The notes under the pieces were generated by a model. The model worked only from the letters and a program-made list of their open reading frames with translations. It did no database searches and was not told the DNA's origin. A stretch of 30,377 bases of DNA, taken from IMG/VR virus record IMGVR_UViG_3300022554_000033; one strand, written 5' to 3'. Positions 3,028-30,377 of this stretch are shown piece by piece; the first letter of the stretch is position 1; each line of letters opens with the position of its first letter. Origin of the DNA: a virus. The position numbers and the translations under genes were made by a program.

Positions 3028-3041
3028 AGTTACCTCGGGTT

Positions 3042-3058
3042 GGTGACTATATGTCACC
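3042..3058. promoter_or_regulatory. Operator O1, perfect inverted repeat GGTGAC-N5-GTCACC
   Basis: GGTGACTATATGTCACC is read directly. It lies about +4 to +20 relative to the leftward consensus promoter. Confidence 0.6.
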
Positions 3059-3068
3059 AGATGGTTAC

Positions 3069-3097
3069 ATTATATATCGTTATTGTTAGTTTGTCAA
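3069..3097 (-). promoter_or_regulatory. Early leftward promoter, perfect sigma70/sigmaA consensus
   Basis: The minus strand reads TTGACA-aactaacaataacgata-TATAAT, with a 17-nt spacer counted. It points into the RHH gene. Confidence 0.8.
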
Positions 3098-3102
3098 TGG
3101 CT

Positions 3103-3119
3103 GGCAACAAAATGTCACC
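3103..3119. promoter_or_regulatory. Operator O2, GGCAAC-N5-GTCACC (2 mismatches to O1)
   Basis: Same 6-5-6 geometry as O1. It is immediately upstream of the -35 of the leftward promoter. Confidence 0.5.
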
Positions 3120-3135
3120 CATTGGCTTTTCGGTT

Positions 3136-3152
3136 TGTGACAAACTATCGCC
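3136..3152. promoter_or_regulatory. Operator O3, TGTGAC-N5-ATCGCC (3 mismatches to O1); overlaps palindrome GTTTGT-G-ACAAAC
   Basis: Same 6-5-6 geometry. It is 33 bp centre to centre from O2 and just upstream of the repressor SD. Confidence 0.4.
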
Positions 3153-3166
3153 AGGAGAAAAACGGC

Positions 3167-3565
3167 ATGTTCTCAGAATGGCTTCAAAGGGAGATCAATC
3201 AACGTGGGTGGTCCCAATCAGATTTAGCGCGAAAAGCAGGGATAAAACGTCAAGTAGTTAATCGATACATTAATCAAGAACGATTAACCCCAGATAAAGA
3301 AATTCTCATAGCCATTGCCCGCGCCCTCGACTATCCCCCCGAGGTCGTCCTGCGCGCCGCCGGTATCCTCCCCACTCTCCCCGATTGGCGCTCCGCCGCC
3401 GAAGAAATCCTAGGCTACAAGCTTACTGAGCTCAGTAACTCGCAGATCGAAGAGCTGCTCCAGTATGTCGAGTTTATCCAAAATCGCGACGAGCGTAATC
3501 TCGACCGCCGCACCAGCTACAAAAAACGGGAGGGGGAAACCCCTCCCGAAACGGTTAAGAAATAG
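3167..3565 (+). CDS. XRE-family helix-turn-helix repressor (CI-like), 132 aa
   Basis: GWSQSDLARKAGIKRQVVNRYINQER is a classic XRE HTH. The ATG at 3167 is preceded by AGGAG (3153..3157). It is divergent from the RHH gene across an operator-rich region. Confidence 0.85.
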   Translation: MFSEWLQREINQRGWSQSDLARKAGIKRQVVNRYINQERLTPDKEILIAIARALDYPPEVVLRAAGILPTLPDWRSAAEEILGYKLTELSNSQIEELLQYVEFIQNRDERNLDRRTSYKKREGETPPETVKK

Positions 3566-13964: not shown

Positions 13965-14007
13965 GGCGGAGAGGGGGAACGCTCAGTAACGAGAACCCCC
14001 CCCCGCC
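13965..14007 (-). terminator. GC-rich imperfect hairpin, possible partial terminator after gene 14018..14404
   Basis: GGCGGAGAGGGGG...CCCCCCCCCGCC arms, followed on the minus strand by TTTGGATTGTT (a weak U-tract). Confidence 0.35.
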
Positions 14008-14017
14008 CGCAAATCTA

Positions 14018-19885: not shown

Positions 19886-21380
19886 GGATACCCCCCATCG
19901 CTGACCCATTCCGCAGATCGTTCCAGCTCCAAAATGCTGCATCAACCAGGTCAAATGGTTTAGTCAACGGGAACCGCCTGAGCGCACGCTCTAAAATCAG
20001 ATGTGTTCCATTTACATGCACAATTTTGCCCCGCTCATAGTCTGCCAGCATTTGCAGATTGCGCTCCACCTTGGGGCCATAGCCAGCCCCTGCTTTGTCC
20101 CATACCATTAGCGGCAACCAGGTCAGCTCGGGACGATCCTGCCGGATCTGCTCACACACCCGGTAATATACACTCTGCCAGGTATCCCCGCCCTGGTCAG
20201 TCTCAATCCCCACGTGATCGAACTGCAACTCGACTGCCTTGAGAATTGCCCTCTTTAGCGCGTCCTCCGGGCTGGTCACCTGCTCCCACGAGAACAAACG
20301 ATAGATGATCCCATCTTCGCCCAATCCATCCGCCTGAATCCCTTGGCTGTCGCTCTGGTCAGTGCTGGTTACTGCCGGATCAACCCACACACAACCCCGT
20401 ATGAGCACAGGCAGATCACTCCACTCACAATGCTGAAACTCAATATGATCCCAGATCCCACCTGGCGGTACATCTACCTCGTGCTGCGCCTCTTGCAGAA
20501 ACGATGTCAATCCCCAGGTTGTCATCTGTCCCTGGCATATTTCGAGATTCTGCCCTTCCCAAGTCGCCTTGCCAGCCGTAATCACAAACTGCCCACCTCG
20601 CTGCTCATACTCTAATCCTTCCACCGCCGGATACGGTCCGCTGACAATCCGATCAGCGAGCATCTCTGCCCGCCCGTCAACCAGCTGCGCCGCGATGCTG
20701 TTGGGGTGTATGAGGTTTTGAATAAACAGCACTGCACAATCCACACTGCCGGCAGGCAGAAGCGAGGTTGATATTGTTTCGACTTTCTTGCGAGTCGTTG
20801 CCAGGCTATCAAAACGCTCGTCCACGTCATCGAAAATGATCAGGTCTGGGCGCTGGTGCTCCACCTTTGCGCCACGGCTGCCCACATCCAAGCCCAGAGC
20901 ATCTATCGTCAATCCGCTGGCGGTCCGCAGTCGCTCCCGCCGCCAGCCTTTCGACGCCCCATACTTGCCAATCTTGCGTGATGCCAGGAGCGGGTGATAA
21001 CGTTCCAATTGCTTGCTTTCCAACATTGCCCCAATAGTCTCTACGTGCTTGTCGGCCTTCTCCTGAGTGGCAGAGACATACCAGATGTATTTGCGGCTTC
21101 CTTTAGCTCCCACTCGCACACAAGCCAGCTCAGCACTGGATGATTTTGCTCCACCTCTCGGCCAGATTGCCACCAGTGGGCACGGACGCACACCACGCTG
21201 TATTCCCTCTACCCACTCCCAAAACAACACGTGTCTATCGGCAAATGGCGCGCTGATATACGCCGGGTAGATAGCTTTCAGCCAACCCTGCCAGCTCTCT
21301 GGCGCCAACAGGGTCTTAGTCCCCAGGCGTTTCCTGCGCTCCAGCTCCGCCAACGCTCTGACCTGCACTTGCGAGTACAT
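19878..21380 (-). CDS. terL: Terminase large subunit
   Basis: Walker A-like WPRGGAKSS and Walker B DLIIFDDVDE. The C-terminal nuclease acidic motifs are VWVDPAV and GIETDQGGD. The ATG at 21380 has GGGGAGGA 8 nt upstream. Confidence 0.88.
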   Translation of the reverse strand: MYSQVQVRALAELERRKRLGTKTLLAPESWQGWLKAIYPAYISAPFADRHVLFWEWVEGIQRGVRPCPLVAIWPRGGAKSSSAELACVRVGAKGSRKYIWYVSATQEKADKHVETIGAMLESKQLERYHPLLASRKIGKYGASKGWRRERLRTASGLTIDALGLDVGSRGAKVEHQRPDLIIFDDVDERFDSLATTRKKVETISTSLLPAGSVDCAVLFIQNLIHPNSIAAQLVDGRAEMLADRIVSGPYPAVEGLEYEQRGGQFVITAGKATWEGQNLEICQGQMTTWGLTSFLQEAQHEVDVPPGGIWDHIEFQHCEWSDLPVLIRGCVWVDPAVTSTDQSDSQGIQADGLGEDGIIYRLFSWEQVTSPEDALKRAILKAVELQFDHVGIETDQGGDTWQSVYYRVCEQIRQDRPELTWLPLMVWDKAGAGYGPKVERNLQMLADYERGKIVHVNGTHLILERALRRFPLTKPFDLVDAAFWSWNDLRNGSAMGGIHV

Positions 21381-21954
21381 GCAGTGGGTCCTCCCCATTT
21401 GCGATTCGCGCCAACTGTTCATCACTCAGTAATGAGAGATCAATGTTCAGTGTAGTCAACCTACCTCCAGTCTCTATCCCGGCTGCCAGTCTTCGCAGCT
21501 TCGAAGCCAGCTCCATCGCGTCAACCAGGAATTTCCCGTTTAGCGCAACTGTCATAATCTCTTTCCCACTTCGATCAACCCGAGTGCTGGTCTTGATAAA
21601 CCTCGGCCCTTCTGCCAGGATCGCCTTAGACAATTCCAGCAACTCGCTGCCCACCTGCCATTCGTCCTCTCGCAACTGCGCATGGCGCTGAGCCCACTTG
21701 TCATGATCCTCAATCGCCCGCAGCTGCTCCCAGGCTGCAACCCGCGCCTGCCACGCGTAGTGTCCTGACCATTTGTCAAGCGTCGGCTTGCGCCTGGTCG
21801 GCGGATCAGTCTGCTGTCGGTATAGCATATGCAACTTTGCCAGACTACGCTTGAACCCCATCATGGCGTAGTCATACAAAGCACGGTTCGCTTTTGCCGA
21901 TTCGCCATCACAGCGCGCCAGTGGGTCATCAGGATTAAAAACAAACTCGGTCAT
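21316..21954 (-). CDS. terS: Terminase small subunit (putative)
   Basis: It is directly upstream of terL. N-terminal HTH-like ANRALYDYAMMGFKRSLAKL is followed by WSGHYAWQARVAAWE, a pattern seen in TerS proteins. Confidence 0.6.
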   Translation of the reverse strand: MTEFVFNPDDPLARCDGESAKANRALYDYAMMGFKRSLAKLHMLYRQQTDPPTRRKPTLDKWSGHYAWQARVAAWEQLRAIEDHDKWAQRHAQLREDEWQVGSELLELSKAILAEGPRFIKTSTRVDRSGKEIMTVALNGKFLVDAMELASKLRRLAAGIETGGRLTTLNIDLSLLSDEQLARIANGEDPLHVLASAGQSVGGAGAQETPGD

Positions 21955-22108
21955 CGAAATCGTCGCACTCGTACAACATCAAGCGATACTCTAACCCACG
22001 GATGTAATGTCGTAGCAGGTTGGCGGTTTCTGTATCTGTCTCCTCAATCTTCGCCAGCGCCAACTCGATATCTTCCTTGGTCACCAATTTGGGCTGAGTT
22101 TCACTCAT
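21935..22108 (-). CDS. Hypothetical protein, 57 aa
   Basis: The start MSETQPK overlaps the endolysin stop (ATGA). The protein is acidic and helical. Confidence 0.5.
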   Translation of the reverse strand: MSETQPKLVTKEDIELALAKIEETDTETANLLRHYIRGLEYRLMLYECDDFDDRVCF

Positions 22109-23004
22109 ACTGGCTCCGCATAGTATTGACCGTTTAGAACCAGGCACACCCACTTGCCATCATACTGCCCACCCTTGATTTGCAACCATGTTGAGCACAC
22201 TGGCGCGCCGGCTTTAATGTCCAGCACCTCAAACTCAGTATGAGAGGGCAAGTTACCTACGTCTGGAAAGTTGGTGCCTGGACCAGACCTTACATTCAAA
22301 TACGGGGATGCAGTCACTCGATATTTCAATTTATCACCTCCTGGCGGTTCAGGCATGCTTATTCCAAATTCCGCCCTGAATTGCTCAAGCGTTCCAGGAT
22401 ATTCATCCAGATCAACAGTTGGGTCAACTATCCCAGGTATCGTTTCGCTCCATGACCGCTGCCAGATAACGTAATCCTTCCACAGCTTCGGCATAGTCGG
22501 CTTGGGGGCTGTGTTGTATAACCCGCCACTGCCCGGGCTCGCTACCCACAGCCTGGTGCCCAGCGTCGACTTGAGATACTGGTTGGCGTATGCCTGGTTG
22601 GTATAGGTCAGCGGCATTTGCCCGTTGACGCGGGGCAGGTTGTACACATGGTAGTCAAACGTCCGCATCGCCCTCCCTGGGACACTCGCCGGTCTGATCT
22701 CCATGTCAATCGCAATAGGCCAATCCAGCGGACGGGCTCCCAGGTGCGCCAGGAAATTTGCTACCTGCGGTGGGTCATCTTGATCTGGCACAGGCACCGT
22801 GTAGGCTGTCACCAATAGTCCGGCCGCCTTCGCCCCCTCATAGTCGGCATGAAACCAAGGGTCACGGTAGTAACGCCCAACCGTGCAACGGATGGCAACA
22901 TAGTGGTAACCAGCTGCATAGATAGCCCCCCAATCGTGCGGCGCTGTGCCATGCTTGTGATTGTTATAGCTAGTATCGAAACCTAGCAAAGTCATTATCC
23001 GCAT
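22105..23004 (-). CDS. Endolysin: GH25-like muramidase with C-terminal SH3b cell-wall-binding domain
   Basis: GFDTS...DWGAIYAAGYHYVAIRCTVG..YRDPWF..YEGAKAAGLLVTAY resembles GH25. LNVRSGPGTNFPDVGNLPSHTEFEVLD...WLQI matches the SH3_3 pattern. Confidence 0.78.
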   Translation of the reverse strand: MRIMTLLGFDTSYNNHKHGTAPHDWGAIYAAGYHYVAIRCTVGRYYRDPWFHADYEGAKAAGLLVTAYTVPVPDQDDPPQVANFLAHLGARPLDWPIAIDMEIRPASVPGRAMRTFDYHVYNLPRVNGQMPLTYTNQAYANQYLKSTLGTRLWVASPGSGGLYNTAPKPTMPKLWKDYVIWQRSWSETIPGIVDPTVDLDEYPGTLEQFRAEFGISMPEPPGGDKLKYRVTASPYLNVRSGPGTNFPDVGNLPSHTEFEVLDIKAGAPVCSTWLQIKGGQYDGKWVCLVLNGQYYAEPV

Positions 23005-23008
23005 CCTC

Positions 23009-23299
23009 TCACGGAAACACCACCTGCGCCTGTCCTACAATCAACGCCCAAATCAACGCAATCACCGAAACCCCCAACAAACTTGCCACTGCCATCATCG
23101 CTTTAATGAAGGGCGCAAAAGTCTCAAGTGTTCTCAGGCGGTCTTCATGATCTTTGGCAACCCGCTCAAGCTCAGTAAGCTGTTTGGCTGATAGAGGCAC
23201 GTTTATTAATACAACCTCAACCTTGCTTCTGAGCTCTTTTAGGTCAGTTTTGATCTCTGCGATATCCCCCCGCAGCTCAGTGTAATCGTCGTGAGGCAT
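23009..23299 (-). CDS. XhlA-like lysis-associated membrane protein (coiled coil plus C-terminal TM), 96 aa
   Basis: MPHDDYTELRGDIAEIKTDLKELRSKVE... coiled coil, then the TM segment AMMAVASLLGVSVIALIWALIV. It sits between the holin and endolysin genes. The track start at 23422 overlaps the holin. Confidence 0.5.
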   Translation of the reverse strand: MPHDDYTELRGDIAEIKTDLKELRSKVEVVLINVPLSAKQLTELERVAKDHEDRLRTLETFAPFIKAMMAVASLLGVSVIALIWALIVGQAQVVFP

Positions 23300-23306
23300 G
23301 GTAAAG

Positions 23307-23588
23307 TCAGCCACTAGCCGGCGCACGCTTGCTGATAAACTTGTAATACCCGCTGGCTGCCAGACCAAACGCCGCCGAGGTGAACAGGATCTCCACCGCC
23401 TGCCCATAGGGTTGTGGCACAATGCCGATGAGTTGGTATGCGGTCAGAATAACCGCTCCCAACACCGCCGCCAGCATAGTCACCCGCTTCCCTGACCAGC
23501 CCAGCAGCCCCTTCAAAAACTCCACCAGCCCAAACACCAGGGCAATCAACTGTACCCCGCCAACCACATATGCTTCTGGATCGAACAT
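23307..23588 (-). CDS. Holin (three predicted TM segments), 93 aa
   Basis: The hydrophobic segments are VVGGVQLIALVFGLVEFL, VTMLAAVLGAVILTAYQLIG and ILFTSAAFGLAASGYY, with a charged C-terminus. SD AAGGAGAA is present. It is the first gene of the lysis cassette. Confidence 0.7.
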   Translation of the reverse strand: MFDPEAYVVGGVQLIALVFGLVEFLKGLLGWSGKRVTMLAAVLGAVILTAYQLIGIVPQPYGQAVEILFTSAAFGLAASGYYKFISKRAPASG

Positions 23589-23599
23589 AACTTCTCCTT

Positions 23600-23633
23600 A
23601 AACGCAAAACACCCGATGCAAAAATACATCGGG
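23600..23633 (-). terminator. Intrinsic terminator in the leader of the late operon
   Basis: The minus-strand RNA forms a stem CCCGAUGUA / UGCAUCGGG (9 bp including one G-U) with a UUUU loop, followed by UGUUUUGCGUUU. The mismatch on the plus strand argues for minus-strand function. Confidence 0.7.
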
Positions 23634-23692
23634 CGCACCCTAGCCGAAATCAATTGGATTGACCCCACACCTGTCAATCAGCGCTTAAAATG

Positions 23693-23719
23693 ATTATATC
23701 ATAAAATTTCAAATTTCAA
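23693..23719 (-). promoter_or_regulatory. Candidate late promoter with extended -10 (TGATATAAT) and TTGAAA -35-like element
   Basis: The minus strand reads TTGAAA-tttgaaattttatga-TATAAT, with a 15-nt spacer and a TG at the extended -10 position. It starts right after the stop of gene 23728..23988. Confidence 0.55.
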
Positions 23720-23727
23720 TTCCCTTT

Positions 23728-23988
23728 TTAGGGAAGGGTCGGGGATAGGTTGTTCCCCCGCCTCACCCTCTCAATCAGATCATCAATTGCCTCTTGCCCC
23801 GCGTGCCACAACAGCACCCCCCCGCAGGCGCACCACACCTCCATATCCATCGCGCTCTCCACCATCAGCCCCCCCATCTCTACGCGTAGCACCCGTATAC
23901 CGTTCTTACGGAACACGCGCCCCACCACCTGCTTGCACTCCGGGCAGCGTATTGGCTTGCCGTTCTCCATAGTAGTATCATCCGTCAT
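23728..23988 (-). CDS. Zinc-ribbon-like small protein, 86 aa
   Basis: A CPEC...CACG cysteine pair-of-pairs. It is the last ORF before the late promoter/terminator. Confidence 0.65.
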   Translation of the reverse strand: MTDDTTMENGKPIRCPECKQVVGRVFRKNGIRVLRVEMGGLMVESAMDMEVWCACGGVLLWHAGQEAIDDLIERVRRGNNLSPTLP

Positions 23989-24112
23989 TCATCCTCTCTT
24001 TCATCTTTAGGGAGAGGGCAGGATGGGGATTAACCTCGCCACCGCCAGCGCCCCCGTCGCCCCCACCTGCATCAGCTTCTCTTTCTTTCTGTACTGTATA
24101 TTCAGTAATCAT
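23978..24112 (-). CDS. Micro-ORF, 44 aa, Gly-rich centre
   Basis: Translation is MITEYTVQKEREADAGGGDGGAGGGEVNPHPALSLKMKERMNDG. The start overlaps the upstream stop (GGAGAATGA) and the end overlaps the next start by 11 nt. It is below the ORF-track cutoff. Confidence 0.3.
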   Translation of the reverse strand: MITEYTVQKEREADAGGGDGGAGGGEVNPHPALSLKMKERMNDG

Positions 24113-24339
24113 TCTCCACTCAAATATTCTTTTATCCATTCATTATCAGCCCAGGTAACAGCCGCTTTATCCATAATCAACTTCAGGAACGCCAGGATAT
24201 GCTCTGGGGATGTAAAGCGTATCCCAATACTTTGATTGTCTCCAATCCAGAATATAATTGTCACATGGTCCTCATAGGCATATGCCTCAGGTGCAACATA
24301 CACAACTTCCGGCAATCGCGGGCGTCTATTCCTGGACAT
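24109..24339 (-). CDS. Hypothetical protein, 76 aa
   Basis: The internal ATG at 24339 (MSRNRRPRLPE) has GGAG 6 nt upstream. This reduces the overlap with the upstream gene from 101 nt to 14 nt. Confidence 0.6.
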   Translation of the reverse strand: MSRNRRPRLPEVVYVAPEAYAYEDHVTIIFWIGDNQSIGIRFTSPEHILAFLKLIMDKAAVTWADNEWIKEYLSGE

Positions 24340-24583
24340 TATGCACTCCAAATATCTGTCTTGTTCCTTCAATCGCCACAGGTGGCTGTGTGTATCCACT
24401 ATGTACCCATAGCCATACTTTGCCATAAAACAACATGGACAGTCGCTCTCTCAGGGTTGGTCGCCAGCACGACACACACATTAATCCATCTGTATAGACT
24501 GGCAATGTTCCACATTGTTCATCCGTCCACCCGGCAGGTTTGACAAGGTCTTTATTTGCTTCTGGAAATTTTATCGGTTTCAT
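24326..24583 (-). CDS. Conserved-looking phage hypothetical protein, 85 aa
   Basis: MKPIKFPEANKDL...LPVYTDG..CVSCW.PTLRERLSMLFYGKVWLWV...QPPV resembles a recurrent small phage protein family of unknown function (recalled from memory, not searched). SD AAGGATGG is present. Confidence 0.65.
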   Translation of the reverse strand: MKPIKFPEANKDLVKPAGWTDEQCGTLPVYTDGLMCVSCWRPTLRERLSMLFYGKVWLWVHSGYTQPPVAIEGTRQIFGVHNVQE

Positions 24584-24603
24584 AATCCATCCTTTTTATC
24601 CTT

Positions 24604-24641
24604 GCCCGTCTCCGGTGGCTTCCCGTTCACCGGAGATGGGC
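24604..24641 (-). other. Long stem-loop GCCC-gt-CTCCGGTG ... CACCGGAG-at-GGGC in a 176-bp noncoding gap
   Basis: 8-bp perfect inner stem plus 4-bp outer stem, with a 10-nt loop. No U-run on either strand. Confidence 0.4.
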
Positions 24642-24759
24642 AAGCTGACCAGATTGCCGCAATCGCCTATTACACACCTCCCGATGACCATGGAACCGCG
24701 GCGTATCCCACGTCATCGTTTTGGGCTGGGGCGCGACCTGCGAATTCACACACATATCA

Positions 24760-25641
24760 TCAACATTTTATTTGCTCTCGTAAGATCGCAATTGCATCAT
24801 CGTTAGACATACTGTGCAATCTGGCAAATAAATTGATCACATCCAGCGGCTTGGGCGTGCAGCCGGCAAAACAACCGCAAATCTGGCGCTGAGTGTCGAT
24901 CCAAAAACTGGGATGCCTGTCATCATGCAACGGACACGTTGTCAATAGCCAGTGGTCACCAGTGGCAATCGTATTGCCAAAAAAGCTCTCGATTGATAAA
25001 CTTGCCCGGATCTTGTCGATAACACCAGTACCGGGCGGAGCGCTGCGCGGCAACATAGCCAGGAGCCACGGGTCATCAACAGACCGGGCAACAACCGGGT
25101 TAACAACTCCCGCCGGCAAATCCTGATCTGCCAGCACAGCCGCCGGCAACACATCGGAAAGATTAGCGACCAAAGGGAAGTTAAAATGCTCAGTAAGGGG
25201 GGTATAGACAGCCCCGCTCGGGTGGATCGACCCTGCGCCGATCACATAACCCCCGCGGCACTTGATATCAATCTTACCGACGCGCCGGGTACGCTCGGGC
25301 TTGGGAAGACGAATATAAACATGTACACCCCGGGAAGTTACCACTTTATAAGCCATCCAGCTGACCCACTCCGGCGGTCCGGGTTGGCTTCTTGCCCACA
25401 ACAACCATTTAGAGTAATCACTCATATCGTCAAAATCTAAGACGGTTAATCCTTGCCAACCGGTTATAATCCCTATATTGCGTGGCTTCGCGAACCACCA
25501 CCGCAATTCTTGCTCAGTAGGGAGTTGGGATTGATATTGCTGCCATCGCAAGAGCGGTCGCTTGTCACGGTATTTCACCGGGATTACTGCGATCCCCCGG
25601 TGAAGAAAGCTTAGTGCAAGGTTTATTGCGGAATTGGTCAT
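24760..25641 (-). CDS. Bifunctional primase-polymerase (Prim-Pol, AEP) with C-terminal CHC2-type zinc finger
   Basis: GIAVIPVKYRDKRPLL.W...NIGIITG..GLTVLDFDD...RGVHVYI...GGYVIGAGSIHPSG fit the Prim-Pol N-terminal domain. CPLHDDRHPSFWIDTQRQICGCFAGC fits a primase zinc finger. Confidence 0.85.
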   Translation of the reverse strand: MTNSAINLALSFLHRGIAVIPVKYRDKRPLLRWQQYQSQLPTEQELRWWFAKPRNIGIITGWQGLTVLDFDDMSDYSKWLLWARSQPGPPEWVSWMAYKVVTSRGVHVYIRLPKPERTRRVGKIDIKCRGGYVIGAGSIHPSGAVYTPLTEHFNFPLVANLSDVLPAAVLADQDLPAGVVNPVVARSVDDPWLLAMLPRSAPPGTGVIDKIRASLSIESFFGNTIATGDHWLLTTCPLHDDRHPSFWIDTQRQICGCFAGCTPKPLDVINLFARLHSMSNDDAIAILREQIKC

Positions 25642-25659
25642 TGTTGTTCTCTAATATTG

Positions 25660-25754
25660 GTTACAGATGTTACATGTAACATCTATTAAATTACTTTTAC
25701 TGGTAAACTTAATTTAATAGCAGTTACGCGTAACATCTGTAACATCTGTAACAC
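25660..25754. repeat. Palindrome/iteron block: candidate replication origin
   Basis: The block contains a 20-bp perfect palindrome AGATGTTACATGTAACATCT (25665..25684). It has the inverted repeat ATTAAATTA-N16-TAATTTAAT (25685..25718) and the 12-bp palindrome GTTACGCGTAAC (25723..25734). It also has the 9-bp tandem repeat GTAACATCT x2 plus a partial third copy (25730..25754). There are eight GTTAC/GTAAC pentamers in 95 bp. Confidence 0.6.
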
Positions 25755-27212
25755 TCATGGCCCTTTCAATCGTATTCCTGCATAGCCGCGCAGCAAATTC
25801 CTTCCGGTTCTAGCAACAAACGGCTTCCCCAGTCCCAACTTAGTCAGCGCTGCTGCCAATTTGCGCGTATCCAGGTCGAATCCGGTTAGCCCAGCGTTTT
25901 TCAGCTCCGCCAAAATATCGAGCGTCGCCATCCACCACTGGTTATTGCCGGGGTCGATCTCAAATAAACGCTTGATAGTTTCCTCCACCACGTCTACAAT
26001 CTGATATTGTTGGTTGATTTCCTCCGCCTGGTCCCACTCGTGGGGTGTCAGCTCCCAGGGCTCGCCGCTTAAATACAGATCGAACGCTTGCGCCCAAACT
26101 TGGTCAACATCTATCCGAGTGTAAGACCAGTCGATATTCTCCAGGTGCACCACCATGAAACGCCGGTTGCCAGTTGGATCGGATAGTAAACCCCCCTCGT
26201 TGTTCGCCGTGCCGATGAAGCTAGTGATCACCTGCCCGATCAGATCAAATTTCGCGTACGGCTTTCGGTCTCTCACGGTCTGTGTGGTCAAAAACGCTTT
26301 CAGCGCTTCCCGGTCTGCCCGCCGGGTTGTAGAGCCAAACTCGTTCACTTCCCAGATCCACGTCCATAGGCGTCTTAATCTACAATCCTTGTCATCTGGC
26401 GTGATTGCTCCCTCATGGTAGTACTCCGGCATCGGGCTCGCCAGCCACTTCACAAAATGGCTCTTGCCGATGCGCTGCCTGCCATCCAGAACTAATACTC
26501 TATTTTGTTCACCCGCCATCACCCGCGCTACCGCCCCCACCAGCCAGCGCCGCATCCAGGTTGCAAAGACGTTGTGCTCATCCCAAAAACAAGCGCATAA
26601 ATTCCCGATTGGGTCGCCACCGTTAAATTTCAAGCCTGTCAAATAGTCCCGAATCGGATGATAACGGTGCAACCAAGCGGCGCCGGTGTAGGCGTCCTCC
26701 GCCACACCTACTTCCCACACCCCCACGTCGCGCAATTTGCCTCGGATGATCTTTGCCAGACCATCACTCACCGGCACGCCGTTTGCCTCGATCTCGTGGG
26801 TGCATAAGTTGTATTTGAATTCATATCCTAATGACTTCAGCACCTGCATATACTGAGCAGTCTTGCGTTTCTTTCCCGGGCTGGCGGTTTGCAGCCATTG
26901 CCGCAATTCAGCTGCCCGGGTGGTAATTGCCCCCAGCACAGCTGCCTGCGCCGCCGGCGGCAGGTTCTCGATGCTGAGAGCGATAGCATCTTGCACGTTG
27001 CCGCCAATTTGGATAATCTGCTCGTGCATGCTCCGCCATGGTTCTGCCCTCGGCGGCAACAAATTTGGCGGCTCGCCGCTCGCCAGGCAACGTGCAATTT
27101 GCTCCAGCCCATCGATAAATTCCTGCTCTGGCTCATTGGCGTAATATTGTTCCAGGATCTGGGCGTCGCCCGTATTAATCCCGGCATTGAGCAGGGTGCG
27201 TAAGTTCGCCAT
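25755..27212 (-). CDS. VirE-family / D5-like SF3 replicative helicase
   Basis: VLVLDGRQRIGKSHFVKWL (Walker A), WIWEVNEF (Walker B-like) and RKPYAKF...FIGTANNEGGLLSDPTGNRRF match the VirE (PF05272-like) pattern. Confidence 0.88.
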   Translation of the reverse strand: MANLRTLLNAGINTGDAQILEQYYANEPEQEFIDGLEQIARCLASGEPPNLLPPRAEPWRSMHEQIIQIGGNVQDAIALSIENLPPAAQAAVLGAITTRAAELRQWLQTASPGKKRKTAQYMQVLKSLGYEFKYNLCTHEIEANGVPVSDGLAKIIRGKLRDVGVWEVGVAEDAYTGAAWLHRYHPIRDYLTGLKFNGGDPIGNLCACFWDEHNVFATWMRRWLVGAVARVMAGEQNRVLVLDGRQRIGKSHFVKWLASPMPEYYHEGAITPDDKDCRLRRLWTWIWEVNEFGSTTRRADREALKAFLTTQTVRDRKPYAKFDLIGQVITSFIGTANNEGGLLSDPTGNRRFMVVHLENIDWSYTRIDVDQVWAQAFDLYLSGEPWELTPHEWDQAEEINQQYQIVDVVEETIKRLFEIDPGNNQWWMATLDILAELKNAGLTGFDLDTRKLAAALTKLGLGKPFVARTGRNLLRGYAGIRLKGP

Positions 27213-27219
27213 TTAGAGT

Positions 27220-27780
27220 TTATGCGTTCAGTAAAAGCTGCTTGGCTTTATCCAGTAGATTTGTTGCCCGATCTGCCGTCACAATCGCCCCGCCGGCTGC
27301 TTTTGCCAGCCGGGCCAGGAATTCGCGGCCGTGGGGTCTATCTTCCGGACCGACAAAAATCACATGAATCGTATTTTTGTATTGAACAGCGATCCCTAAC
27401 GCATCCGACTCGCTATTTGGCTCGCCATCGGAGATGACAATGAATTTCATCCCTGGCACGTCGGCGATCTTGGCAAATCTAAGCGCCCCGGCTAAATCAG
27501 TACCGCCGCCTAAGTATTGCGGTTTTCCGTTTGGGCAGAAGATGGTTGTATCTGAGAAGGCTAAAACCGCAATTTTCCCTGGCATGTTCTGTTGTAAGCT
27601 CGCTAGCTCCTCGCACGCCACACTATAGCGGGAACGCCCGTTGCGGGAATCTTCTGCCGCCATGCTGCCGCTCGTGTCAACGATGACGATTACATCGCAG
27701 GACAGGAATGTTTCCGCGATGCTCTTGCCCGTGTTTTGGGCAATTGATCCAAGTGATCCGGGGATGATTGCATTGTTCAT
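27220..27780 (-). CDS. von Willebrand factor A (vWA) domain protein with complete MIDAS, 186 aa
   Basis: VIVIVDTSGSM (D-x-S-x-S), GGGTDL (Thr) and VISDGEP (Asp). The ATG at 27780 overlaps the upstream stop (ATGA). The 71-aa N-terminal extension in the track is Arg/Ser-rich junk overlapping the previous gene. Confidence 0.85.
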   Translation of the reverse strand: MNNAIIPGSLGSIAQNTGKSIAETFLSCDVIVIVDTSGSMAAEDSRNGRSRYSVACEELASLQQNMPGKIAVLAFSDTTIFCPNGKPQYLGGGTDLAGALRFAKIADVPGMKFIVISDGEPNSESDALGIAVQYKNTIHVIFVGPEDRPHGREFLARLAKAAGGAIVTADRATNLLDKAKQLLLNA

Positions 27781-27968
27781 CGCACACAGTATTCCTTCCT
27801 CGCGCCGCAATACACGCACACGTACACTTCCCATCGTCCGTACTCGATCAACTGGTGGGCTGTACTCTTGCCGCACCGGTCGCAATACATCCGGTAGTAG
27901 TCGATCTTGCGCTTCCTGGCTACTGCTTGTCTCACCATTTCGATGAATTGCACGCTTTCTTTGCTCAT
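27777..27968 (-). CDS. Zinc-ribbon protein, 63 aa
   Basis: CDRC-x17-CVYC. There are ATGA overlaps at both ends (27965..27968 and 27777..27780). Confidence 0.65.
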   Translation of the reverse strand: MSKESVQFIEMVRQAVARKRKIDYYRMYCDRCGKSTAHQLIEYGRWEVYVCVYCGARKEYCVR

Positions 27969-28813
27969 ACCCATCTCTCCGTAAATGTGTCATTGCCTGG
28001 CTGCCAGCTTGTTACTAAGACCTGTCCCCGGCTATTAACGATATCCTCCCACGCCAGGATTTTTTGTGTGATAAAACGTCCTACCTGGTCAATTCCCTCC
28101 GCCATGATATACCCACAACGCAATGGCGAGCGATACCCGCCAGGAGTCAAGTCCATTGTTTGCCAATCAACTTTCCTCTTCATCGTGGCTTCCAGCGCCA
28201 ACCCGGCATCGTAACGGGCGCGCTTGTCTGCGTTGCTCAGGATCTCGTAGGCTTCTTGGATACGCATAAAGATCTCGACTGCGTTCTTTTCCTTGCAATA
28301 GTCGGGGTGCCATTGCTTCGCCATCCGGCGATAAGCGCGTTTGATCCCCTCGTCGTCGGCGTTCTGCGATGCGCATAACACCCCATATAACGATTGCGCC
28401 GGAGGTCTTTCGTTTTCTTGCACAACGCCATCGAACCACGATCGTAGCACTAGCTCCGGAAAGACAACTGACCATTCGCCGTTGCAATATCCGTAGGCGC
28501 TCCACCCGTCATCTCGCCATTTAGTAATGCCAATATAGCGCACGTCCAGTACACGAGTGTCAACAACTGGGGTTGTCACAATTTGCGGCGCTAATATGGC
28601 AACCCCGATATACTCAGCCACCCAGTTTGTCAGCGTCTGCCCATGCCGGGGATGCACCAGCCATCGCTTGCCATTCGGATCCCAGCGTCGTTCGGCTTGC
28701 GGCAGCGCTTTGATTTTCGCCGTCAAGCTTGGCTCATAGCTGCATGTCAGCGCCAGGGTGCCATTTTCGATAGTCAGCCGCGCGAATGGCGTGTGCTTGC
28801 TGTACCTAGTCAT
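27965..28813 (-). CDS. J-domain (DnaJ-like) protein with N-terminal HARP-like motif, 282 aa
   Basis: Residues 141-202, SLYGVLCASQNADDEGIKRAYRRMAKQWHPDYCKEKNAVEIFMRIQEAYEILSNADKRARYD, form a canonical J domain with HPD. The N-terminal SYEPSLTAKIKALPQAERRWDPNGKRWLV resembles the SMARCAL1-type HARP motif. The ATG at 28813 has SD AGAGGTAAG. Confidence 0.85.
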   Translation of the reverse strand: MTRYSKHTPFARLTIENGTLALTCSYEPSLTAKIKALPQAERRWDPNGKRWLVHPRHGQTLTNWVAEYIGVAILAPQIVTTPVVDTRVLDVRYIGITKWRDDGWSAYGYCNGEWSVVFPELVLRSWFDGVVQENERPPAQSLYGVLCASQNADDEGIKRAYRRMAKQWHPDYCKEKNAVEIFMRIQEAYEILSNADKRARYDAGLALEATMKRKVDWQTMDLTPGGYRSPLRCGYIMAEGIDQVGRFITQKILAWEDIVNSRGQVLVTSWQPGNDTFTERWV

Positions 28814-29570
28814 ACTTACCTCTACACTGCCCCCAAAAATCACAATAAGCTGGGCTGCACTTCCAGGTTGTGGGATTCTCAGGATAGACATTTCTGGATA
28901 TCGCTTCCCACACATGCCGGATCATCCCGAACAGCCACATCACCTGTCCTGGTGTATGCTTATGCTCGAATATGTCTATCTTGGGCTGTTTTGTCTTCAC
29001 AATCACATAATGCCTGAAAGTCCATTCGTGATTATGCTCACCTAACTGGTTTAGCGCGGCTAAGTAAAATAGCGGCTGCGTTTCGCCGGTCGCTCGGTCA
29101 GCAGACCACGACTTGGCGGATGTTTTGAAGTCCCCCGGCACACCCGCTAGGTCAATCATGTCAATATACCCAATCACCGGCACAGGCACCCCCGGCACGC
29201 GCAGCTCTACTTTGCGCTCGATCTCAGTTGCTTGTAATTCACTTAGGGCATCGCAGATCGCCCTGTCGCTCAGTATGCGAACGCCCTCGTTGAAATGTTG
29301 TTCCGGGGTGTCTGTGCCCCACACTATCTGCTCGCCCTCTAGAGCCTGGTTCCAGGCTCTTCCCCAAATACTGAGCAAATCCTCCTGAGTCATAATATTC
29401 TCTTCGATGGTCTGGTGCATTGCCTTGCCGAAAATCAGGTCGGGCGTTGAATAGGTCGGGATTTTTTCCACATACTTAAAGCGCCAGCTCGCTGGGCATG
29501 TCAGATAAGTTGTTATGCTCGAGTAAGACAAATGCTCGATCAGTGATATGTTTGATTGAGTGGCGCTCAT
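28806..29570 (-). CDS. Cas4-like / RecB-family PD-(D/E)xK exonuclease
   Basis: LSYSSITTYLTCPASWRFKYV (N-terminal Cys), GYIDMID...GDFKTSAK (D...D/E-x-K) and C-terminal CSPAYCDFWGQC (three Cys) fit a Cas4-type Fe-S nuclease layout. Confidence 0.85.
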   Translation of the reverse strand: MSATQSNISLIEHLSYSSITTYLTCPASWRFKYVEKIPTYSTPDLIFGKAMHQTIEENIMTQEDLLSIWGRAWNQALEGEQIVWGTDTPEQHFNEGVRILSDRAICDALSELQATEIERKVELRVPGVPVPVIGYIDMIDLAGVPGDFKTSAKSWSADRATGETQPLFYLAALNQLGEHNHEWTFRHYVIVKTKQPKIDIFEHKHTPGQVMWLFGMIRHVWEAISRNVYPENPTTWKCSPAYCDFWGQCRGKYD

Positions 29571-29571
29571 A

Positions 29572-30377
29572 TCATATTCTTCTACTTTCTAACACGCTCA
29601 AGATCTGCAGTACTTCTTCGTCCGTCGCTGGGATCTTTCCCCCGTTTGCGTTCATGATCACCTCGGCGTCGTAGGACTCCAGCAGTATTGCCAGTAGGTC
29701 ATGGTTAGTTTGTGTTTCTGGCTTTTGTACTGGAATTTCTGGTATGGACTCTGTTCCCGAAGTCAGCCATTCAATCACCGGCAGCATGAATTCCGGACCA
29801 GGCTTTTCGATCTTGAGATCGGCTACTGCTGGACAGCGGCTTTTAGAGACTGTCATAATGTGCGACCAGTCGATGTCACATACCAGGTCGAATTCGTACT
29901 CTACGCCGGGCCTCTGCACTGGCGCCATGCCCACCCGCCGTACCACGGTTTTGCCTTGCTCGTTGATTTCTTGAACATACTCCATCCGGCTGCGCATGGT
30001 AGTGATGACGTGGCATGGCGATTGCAGGATACTGTCCACCATACGGTTATGGATTGGAGTCACCGTTCTCCATGCAGTGTAATTGTTGCCTGGCGCCCGG
30101 TCTTTGATCTCCAACGCCCCTCCAACGCCTTCCCATGCGTGCGAGAGCGAATCGATCACCAATACCGCGTAACCCATACGTCCCGCCGCCAGCACTGCCT
30201 CGGTGTATCGCTCTGGTGAAAATGTGGTGAGCTCAAGTACATCAAATTCCCAGGGGATTCCATCGACAATTTCCCCTGCATATTTAGATGCACTGCCTCT
30301 TTCTGTGTCGATCACGGCGATCCTGCCGCCGTTTACCAGCGCGTGGGCGAAGCGCAGCGCCGTATAGGTCTTTCCCG
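29572..30377 (-). CDS. Sak4-like (AAA_24) recombination ATPase; 5' end continues at 1..191 after the circular junction
   Basis: Walker B VLVIDSLSHAW, with the AAA_24-like C-terminal half. The ORF is open to the window end. The full gene is 870 nt in the 30250-bp circle when started at the ATG equivalent to position 191. Confidence 0.85.
   Translation of the reverse strand, partial: GKTYTALRFAHALVNGGRIAVIDTERGSASKYAGEIVDGIPWEFDVLELTTFSPERYTEAVLAAGRMGYAVLVIDSLSHAWEGVGGALEIKDRAPGNNYTAWRTVTPIHNRMVDSILQSPCHVITTMRSRMEYVQEINEQGKTVVRRVGMAPVQRPGVEYEFDLVCDIDWSHIMTVSKSRCPAVADLKIEKPGPEFMLPVIEWLTSGTESIPEIPVQKPETQTNHDLLAILLESYDAEVIMNANGGKIPATDEEVLQILSVLESRRI
30251..30377. repeat. Terminal direct repeat, copy 2 (identical to 1..127)
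   Basis: Exact match, checked block by block. Confidence 0.97.

Follow-up and report, generated by a model that had tools for sequence, protein, structure and literature searches.

Timing of late-gene expression by antitermination is textbook knowledge for the lambdoid phages of enterobacteria; to our knowledge, it is poorly documented outside this group. The known factors (i.e., the three Q families, N, AlpA, and put) represent unrelated solutions to one problem. The Q protein of lambda carries a zinc-binding motif. Systems of the N-nut type are characterized by an arginine-rich peptide that binds the boxB hairpin, by boxA, and usually by at least two nut sites. In P. aeruginosa, AlpA lets RNA polymerase bypass an intrinsic terminator located just downstream of the promoter of the lysis cluster alpBCDE; AlpA is a DNA-binding protein that recognizes a site between the -35 and -10 elements (PMC7969949, PMC9371919). 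A small zinc-finger protein of phage Mu, Com, recognizes a structure in the mom mRNA and alters an adjacent inhibitory hairpin (PMC6483171).

We analyzed a viral sequence of 30,377 nt (here called the window), which is the closed circular genome of an uncultured temperate phage (positions 1 to 127 are identical to positions 30251 to 30377). Its early and late genes are all carried on the minus strand, and a gap of 139 nt on this strand separates an 86-amino-acid (aa) open reading frame (ORF; 23728 to 23988) from the ATG of the holin gene (23588). We propose that the ORF and the gap form a late-gene antitermination switch made of two coinherited parts, a leader acting as the cis element and a zinc-ribbon antiterminator, and we give this reading a probability of about 50%. 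On direct reading, all of the minus-strand elements listed in the original prediction for this gap were present (i.e., the stop of the upstream ORF, TTGAAA-15-TGATATAAT, a hairpin, a U-tract, a Shine-Dalgarno sequence, and the holin ATG).

The phage is distant from those deposited in databases. The TerL protein has no more than 24% identity to that of any deposited phage (tblastn), and the region from 22000 to 25700 had no match to deposited phages in a distant blastn search; the host is uncultured. Upstream of the gap are genes for a Prim-Pol and a VapE-type helicase together with small ORFs; downstream are those for the holin, a 96- to 137-aa membrane/coiled-coil protein, an endolysin (GH25 plus SH3), TerS, TerL, and the portal. 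The holin gene (23307 to 23588, minus strand) is the first of the lysis/packaging/head/tail operon; its match in the window is weak (phrog_1299; E = 1.2e-3), and the holins of the relatives match the same family (E = 1e-9 to 1e-11). A perfect TTGACA-17-TATAAT promoter (3097 to 3069, minus strand) faces an HTH (XRE-like) repressor gene on the plus strand (start near 3178), and GGTGAC-N5-GTCACC palindromes and half-sites flank this promoter (3040 to 3180). It is likely the early promoter, and the region from 3040 to 3180 likely represents the immunity region with its operators. The early/replication operon, about 9.7 kb long, ends with the 86-aa ORF (TAA stop at 23730 to 23728, minus strand), and the hairpin in the gap is also the terminator of that operon.

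Several other features of the genome were recorded. The only other strong minus-strand intrinsic terminator in the whole 30-kb circle (3548 to 3527; 9 pairs, of which 8 are GC; UUUUUU; -18.8 kcal/mol) lies within the 3' end of the repressor gene in the orientation opposite to this gene, and it may shield the immunity region against transcripts from the late operon or the int region. Directly 3' of a 128-aa capsid-region gene, a 179-nt gap contains an imperfect hairpin (about 13965 to 14015, minus strand), which is G/C-rich and has a weak U-tract; it may partially terminate transcription within the late operon, and a AATACTGAGTATT palindrome follows it. An apparent 150-nt gap between the endolysin and TerS genes was rejected as a second control region: it is occupied by a small ORF (21935 to 22108, minus strand; about 57 to 72 aa), of which the likely ATG overlaps the lysin stop (ATGA).

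The protein encoded by the 86-aa ORF contains C15-x2-C18 and C53-x-C55, followed by W61 and a C-terminal helix. In the family alignment (73 to 110 aa), C15, C53, C55, W61, and A67 are invariant, and the C-terminal helix EAIxEL is conserved. Cys18 serves as the fourth ligand, or is replaced in several members by a His at the next position, and the second knuckle has the form C-x(1,2)-C. This is a genuine zinc-ribbon signature with four ligands in two knuckles, from which metal binding is predicted. An AF2 model of fair quality (pLDDT, 77.7) contains six strands and a helix and is rich in beta structure around the ligand residues. The family is rare: an exhaustive phmmer search yielded 15 matches among 1.8e9 representatives, a word search yielded two clusters, and profile searches added a few more; the family has a few dozen sequences among approximately 15 billion proteins.

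Searches of family and structure collections left the protein without a relative. In Pfam (E ≤ 0.01), the only match was a subthreshold one to DUF6510, with none to the Com or Ogr_Delta families, and PHROG and NCBIfam yielded no family. The best Foldseek matches had E values of 0.9 (PDB) and 0.16 (viral library), and no Q protein was among the best 50 matches listed for each. No recognizable RNA-binding domain or structural relative was found in these searches. Profile matches in the PDB to C2H2 zinc-finger proteins covered the N-terminal part of the profile only and were taken as spurious. The N-terminal GKPxRCPxC (residues 10 to 18; window positions 23940 to 23960) mimics the linker of eukaryotic C2H2 zinc fingers, and we attribute to this mimicry the misleadingly low E values of the PDB matches to zinc fingers, both designed ones and those of PRDM9.

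We retrieved the genomic context of 12 homologue lineages and compared the plus-strand ORFs of 11 of these metagenomic loci by all-against-all BLASTP. The zinc-ribbon family was the only protein family common to all 11 loci, with the next family being present in four. The protein had been named as a candidate factor in the original prediction, and the comparison left it as the only conserved one. It is accordingly the candidate trans-acting factor, by gene association alone. Its gene is usually the last of the early ones. A homologous leader is found in nine loci, which fall into three clades: clade A (the window, L005, L205, and L007), clade B (L192 and L193), and clade C (L194, L195/L202, and L201). 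Each of the nine loci contains the promoter, the leader elements described below, the terminator, a Shine-Dalgarno sequence, a gene for a holin or another small late protein, a GH25 lysin gene, and a terminase gene. The zinc-ribbon proteins of the leader-bearing loci have diverged to 33 to 62% identity, and the genes flanking the cassette are mosaic. In L205, three genes lie between the zinc-ribbon gene and the leader, and both parts are retained. Since the conserved unit co-occurs with the zinc-ribbon gene in this mosaic background, we regard the two as a regulator-plus-target cassette like that of Q-PR'-tR'. The conserved synteny could also reflect common descent of the module instead of function.

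Two further loci have a divergent leader of similar build. The loci of the distant homologues L198, L199, and L200 carry a promoter, a hairpin, and a U-tract of unrelated sequence, so that a match between protein and RNA, if real, is not universal in sequence; in L199, three intervening genes precede the leader-like unit, which scored only 13.7 bits against a covariance model of the leader. The L206 contig ends 15 nt after the zinc-ribbon gene, and the sequence downstream could not be read. In motif scans of IMG/VR, the leader motif was found only beside zinc-ribbon homologues: the gapped scans recovered L005/L006 and L202, which are true members, and two chance matches. Scans of metagenome and genome collections for the exact motif TCGGNNAGGGTGCGCCCGATG gave 82 and 96 loci among the matches listed; once a filter requiring the upstream block and the terminator arm had been applied, those outside the family were rejected as chance matches in GC-rich coding regions. 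Two loci with a related holin (L001, 50 to 240; L002, 2190 to 2500) have a near-consensus promoter and a hairpin-rich leader of 160 to 280 nt and of unrelated sequence before the holin gene, and no zinc-ribbon homologue was seen in the fetched stretches. In this phage group, gating of the lysis/late operon by a promoter, a leader, and a terminator may be general, with the leaders differing.

The late promoter consists of the -35 hexamer TTGAAA (23714 to 23719, minus strand) and, after a 15-nt spacer, the extended -10 element TGATATAAT (23693 to 23701), in agreement with the form of sigma-70/sigma-A extended -10 promoters (a TGnTATAAT-like element with a TTGnnn -35 at 15 to 18 nt). Transcription is predicted to start at an A 7 to 8 nt after the -10 element (23685 to 23686), given the usual spacing. 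The relatives have TTGnnn 15 to 17 nt upstream of a TAnnnT -10 element, which is preceded by TGn in 8 of the 9 alignable loci, and the distance from the -10 element to the first conserved block of the leader is 6 to 14 nt. The short spacer that the window and L007 share (15 nt) counts against our reading; this version of the promoter received no score in a generic promoter scan, and promoter-like matches overall were no more frequent than expected by chance. We therefore base the call on the extended -10 element and on its conservation at the equivalent place in the relatives, which point to a constitutive sigma-A/sigma-70-type extended -10 promoter, with its activity predicted from these features.

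The late region was said in the original prediction to have no other obvious promoter, and the scan agrees: no strong promoter was found there, the best minus-strand matches scored 9 of 12, and their number was below the shuffle expectation. The late promoter lacks the immunity operators (GGTGAC-N5-GTCACC), which is also the situation at lambda PR', and control of this promoter by the repressor was rejected for this reason. A TTGAAAT direct repeat showed no enrichment elsewhere.

A strong terminator had been predicted immediately before the holin gene, and the hairpin at 23609 to 23636 (minus strand) ranked first in a terminator scan of positions 20000 to 30377 (12 pairs, of which 6 are GC; -19.6 kcal/mol). 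Its 9-bp core (CCCGAUGUA / UUUU / UGCAUCGGG) includes one U-G pair and extends to 12 pairs, and it is followed by the U-rich tail UUUUGCGUUU (23600 to 23609) and by the holin Shine-Dalgarno sequence AAGGAG (23594 to 23599). A GC-rich stem, a short loop, and a U-rich tract directly after the stem are the features of an intrinsic terminator, and the U-tract is present on the minus strand and absent from the plus strand. The G-U pairs can form only in minus-strand RNA, which bears out an earlier claim about this hairpin. Across eight relatives, the stem is 98.6% paired, with compensatory changes in its upper part. The sequence GCCCG in the 5' arm is invariant among the aligned leaders, and this suggests sequence-specific recognition. 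The minimum-energy fold of every relative contains the terminator, which dominates the fold, and read-through should therefore need a factor. Termination at this hairpin is predicted to yield a leader of about 83 nt with its 3' end near 23603 to 23605.

Two other elements were noted around the terminator. An SD-like AGGGUG stands 6 nt before an AUG within the terminator 5' arm, from which an ORF of 27 codons extends across the holin start (23546 to 23629, minus strand). Clades B and C have ACG or GCG in place of this AUG, so the ORF is probably nonfunctional; in L005 and L205 it is reduced to AUG-UGA, and attenuation by a leader peptide was rejected. In the same two clade A loci (L005, 3385 to 3425; L205, 4078 to 4118), an extra 6-bp hairpin (AGCCCU...AGGGCU), which is absent from the window, lies between the terminator and the holin Shine-Dalgarno sequence.

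The 102-nt leader folds better than all of 200 shuffled sequences (z = -3.6). Given only the MAFFT alignment, RNAalifold returned a consensus composed of a 4-bp helix (P0), a hairpin (P1), and the terminator, in which 7 of the 18 pairs are still paired after changes on both sides. P0 joins the first conserved block of the leader (GCGC, about +3 to +6; 23681 to 23684, minus strand) to GUGC (P0'; 23635 to 23638), which directly abuts the terminator stem. It is 100% paired, and two of its four pairs are compensatory: between clades A/B and clade C, C-G changes to G-C and G-U to U-A. These two pairs stand for one evolutionary event in three clades only and in a helix of 4 bp, and this covariation is suggestive, not statistical. 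P0 and the terminator together are 99% paired, compared with 27 to 56% in slid controls.

P1 (UUGAC / AGGUGUGGG / GUCAA; 23659 to 23677) has a counterpart at the equivalent place in all of the relatives, with differing stems (UGGCA/UGCCA, UCCCCA/UGGGGA, GCCCAC/GUGGGC, and GCCCGC/GCGGGC) and with loop sequences that are not conserved between the clades. The junction between P1 and P0' (23639 to 23658) contains the invariant purines GG..A.GG and the sequence UCGG (23647 to 23644), and the invariant alignment columns are concentrated in this junction and in the terminator arm. UCGG can pair with CCGA in the terminator 5' arm (23632 to 23629) and is thus a candidate strand of an antiterminator helix (AT). 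In the form RUCGG/CCGAY, AT is 82.5% paired among the relatives and includes one A-U to G-C exchange; it has 5 bp in most clade A/B sequences, 4 bp in the window, and only 3 bp in clade C, with 3 bp forming in every sequence. Its formation would sequester the terminator 5' arm and create a pseudoknot with P0. A thermodynamic search for a strong conserved antiterminator was negative, in that the minimum-energy folds of shortened leaders differed and only the weak RUCGG/CCGAY pairing recurred. A covariance model built from eight leaders scored the leader of the window at 83.7 bits and the next best site at 10 bits, so the leader is a single copy and there is no second nut-like site. In Rfam, only a tRNA exceeded the gathering threshold in the whole window, and for positions 23500 to 23800 at E ≤ 10, the best matches were unrelated and far below the thresholds. 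Because the compensatory and G-U pairs fit only the minus strand as RNA, we take the leader to act as RNA.

How the two parts might work together can be compared with lambda. The arrangement recalls that of the Q proteins of lambda and of phages 21 and 82: the gene of the (here candidate) regulator directly precedes a constitutive late promoter, a strong terminator is reached within about 100 to 200 nt and gives a short abortive RNA (here predicted), the late operon begins with the lysis genes, and the regulator travels with its target as a cassette. The zinc-ribbon protein might also act as Q and AlpA do, by binding to the late promoter or to DNA close to it and transferring during early elongation to RNA polymerase, which would resist this and later terminators. 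The zinc-binding motif of lambda Q speaks for this, as do the conserved position of the promoter, which precedes the leader by a short and fixed distance, and the terminator-like hairpin at about 14015 to 13965, which would make processivity useful. The order of gene, promoter, terminator, and lysis genes matches both lambda Q-PR'-tR' and P. aeruginosa AlpA-alpBCDE (PMC7969949, PMC9371919), and with the latter the locus shares a small regulator, a promoter-proximal intrinsic terminator, and a lysis gene cluster. However, the zinc-ribbon protein, which the original prediction had likened to lambda Q in its zinc-binding motif, resembles no Q family in sequence or fold, and the same is true for the AlpA, Ogr, and Com families (for Q, AlpA, and Ogr, no Pfam or fold match). 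The protein has 86 aa, whereas Q proteins have about 150 to 210, and the leader has about 83 nt, whereas that of lambda has 194. By-eye inspection, which is a weak test, revealed no common motif across the clades in the promoter spacers, where a Q or AlpA site would be expected, or upstream of the -35 element, and no -10-like pause hexamer at +1 to +25 of the aligned leaders, of which the initial transcribed bases are AAGCGCUG or GGUCAGCC. The conservation is instead located in the transcript, in a structured RNA with compensatory and G-U pairs, and this RNA touches the terminator and leaves little room for a loading step. We therefore favor direct action on the nascent leader and consider a Q- or AlpA-type factor unlikely. 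Of the lambda PR'-tR'-like control proposed originally, the logic is supported (the unit is conserved before the late/lysis genes and co-occurs with the zinc-ribbon gene), as is the choice of candidate factor, and the Q-type mechanism finds no support.

Two other explanations were considered. The leader might work without the protein, either as a riboswitch-like sensor of a kind not described before, which would open the terminator upon a cellular signal, or as an RNA that modifies the polymerase in the manner of put, canT, or EAR, with the neighboring gene being merely syntenic. The anatomy of the leader, with its invariant junction purines, the pseudoknot that P0 and AT may form, and the terminator next to them, is indeed typical of an expression platform, and cis-acting antiterminator RNAs are present in HK022 (PMC9378689) and Tn916 (PMC11658703). 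Yet no Rfam family matched even at E = 10, the terminator is strongly favored in all folds, and a constitutive cis-antiterminator behind a constitutive promoter would express the lysis genes in lysogens. Moreover, the motif was never found without the zinc-ribbon gene in the loci and scans examined, and given this strict co-occurrence we regard a protein-free RNA as quite improbable. Alternatively, the unit might be a terminator or insulator of the early operon combined with a small RNA gene, the RNA of about 83 nt being a product like StxS, with the late genes activated by another route. In Stx phages, the short transcript from PR'-tR' is a functional small RNA (PMC7547250), the pairing of the 5' end beside the terminator would give a compact and probably stable RNA, and the terminator also ends the early operon. 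Against this, the leader shares only one complementary 11-mer with the remainder of the genome, which is at the level of chance, and for lack of a more extended target we disfavor a StxS-like function; in addition, the P1 loops are not conserved between the clades, and the 18-kb late operon has no other strong promoter. As a replacement for the switch, this explanation appears to us the least probable one, and it is compatible with the switch and does not exclude it.

Several other known systems resemble the locus in part. Mu Com likewise combines a small phage zinc protein, a specific RNA structure, and an adjacent inhibitory hairpin, but Com activates translation and not transcriptional read-through, its cysteine spacing differs, and the Com family of Pfam had no match to the protein described here. 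In the BglG/LicT-RAT and ANTAR systems, a weak second helix also overlaps the 5' arm of the terminator beside a leader hairpin, and a protein is needed against the dominant terminator. Unlike those systems, the present one has no CAT/PRD or ANTAR domain and no RAT or ANTAR loop or stem features; it is also phage encoded and would control a whole late operon. As in lambda N-nut and HK022 put (PMC9378689), a nascent-RNA element would specify antitermination. In contrast to those elements, the leader occurs once per genome and is fused to the terminator instead of lying hundreds of nucleotides upstream; there is no arginine-rich peptide, the protein being predicted to be a beta-rich zinc ribbon, and no Rfam match.

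We envisage the antitermination switch as follows. A constitutive promoter would fire straight into the leader of about 83 nt, which ends in the strong intrinsic terminator and in which P0 would pair the 5' end beside the terminator, enclosing the variable P1 and the invariant purine-rich junction. By default, transcripts from the late promoter and those arriving from the early operon would stop at the terminator, and the holin, endolysin, terminase, and structural genes would be silent. The trans-acting part would be the 86-aa zinc-ribbon protein from the end of the early operon. Once early transcription had supplied enough of it, the protein would bind the emerging leader RNA, contacting the junction, P0', and GCCCGAYG in the 5' arm, and may stabilize the alternative pairing RUCGG/CCGAY. 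Formation of the terminator hairpin next to the U-tract would then be blocked, and RNA polymerase would read into the late operon. The zinc-ribbon protein is thus presumed to be the factor, to act on RNA and not on DNA, and to do so locally and not processively. Because its gene is the last of the early operon, downstream of the promoter at 3097 to 3069 on the circular genome, such an arrangement would provide a natural delay timer.

Antitermination control of late genes is itself known, and what is new here is an orphan zinc-ribbon protein family together with an undescribed structured leader RNA. Only tentatively do we go further and suggest an undescribed class of antiterminators, in which an orphan-fold zinc-ribbon protein of 73 to 110 aa would recognize a dedicated, possibly pseudoknotted leader RNA fused to a terminator and so gate an entire late operon; the class would join the genetic logic of lambda Q with RNA remodeling like that of Com or RAT. 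Its biological reach is limited by the rarity of the family. Should the zinc-ribbon protein not act on RNA, the leader would still represent an undescribed structured phage RNA. The locus is a compact and portable candidate for a further solution to the problem of late-gene timing, consisting of one 86-aa protein and a DNA segment of about 130 bp, and, since both parts are defined, it can be used in a heterologous reporter without culturing the host. If RNA is what the protein acts on, both its small RNA-binding fold and the orthogonal transcription switch would be new.
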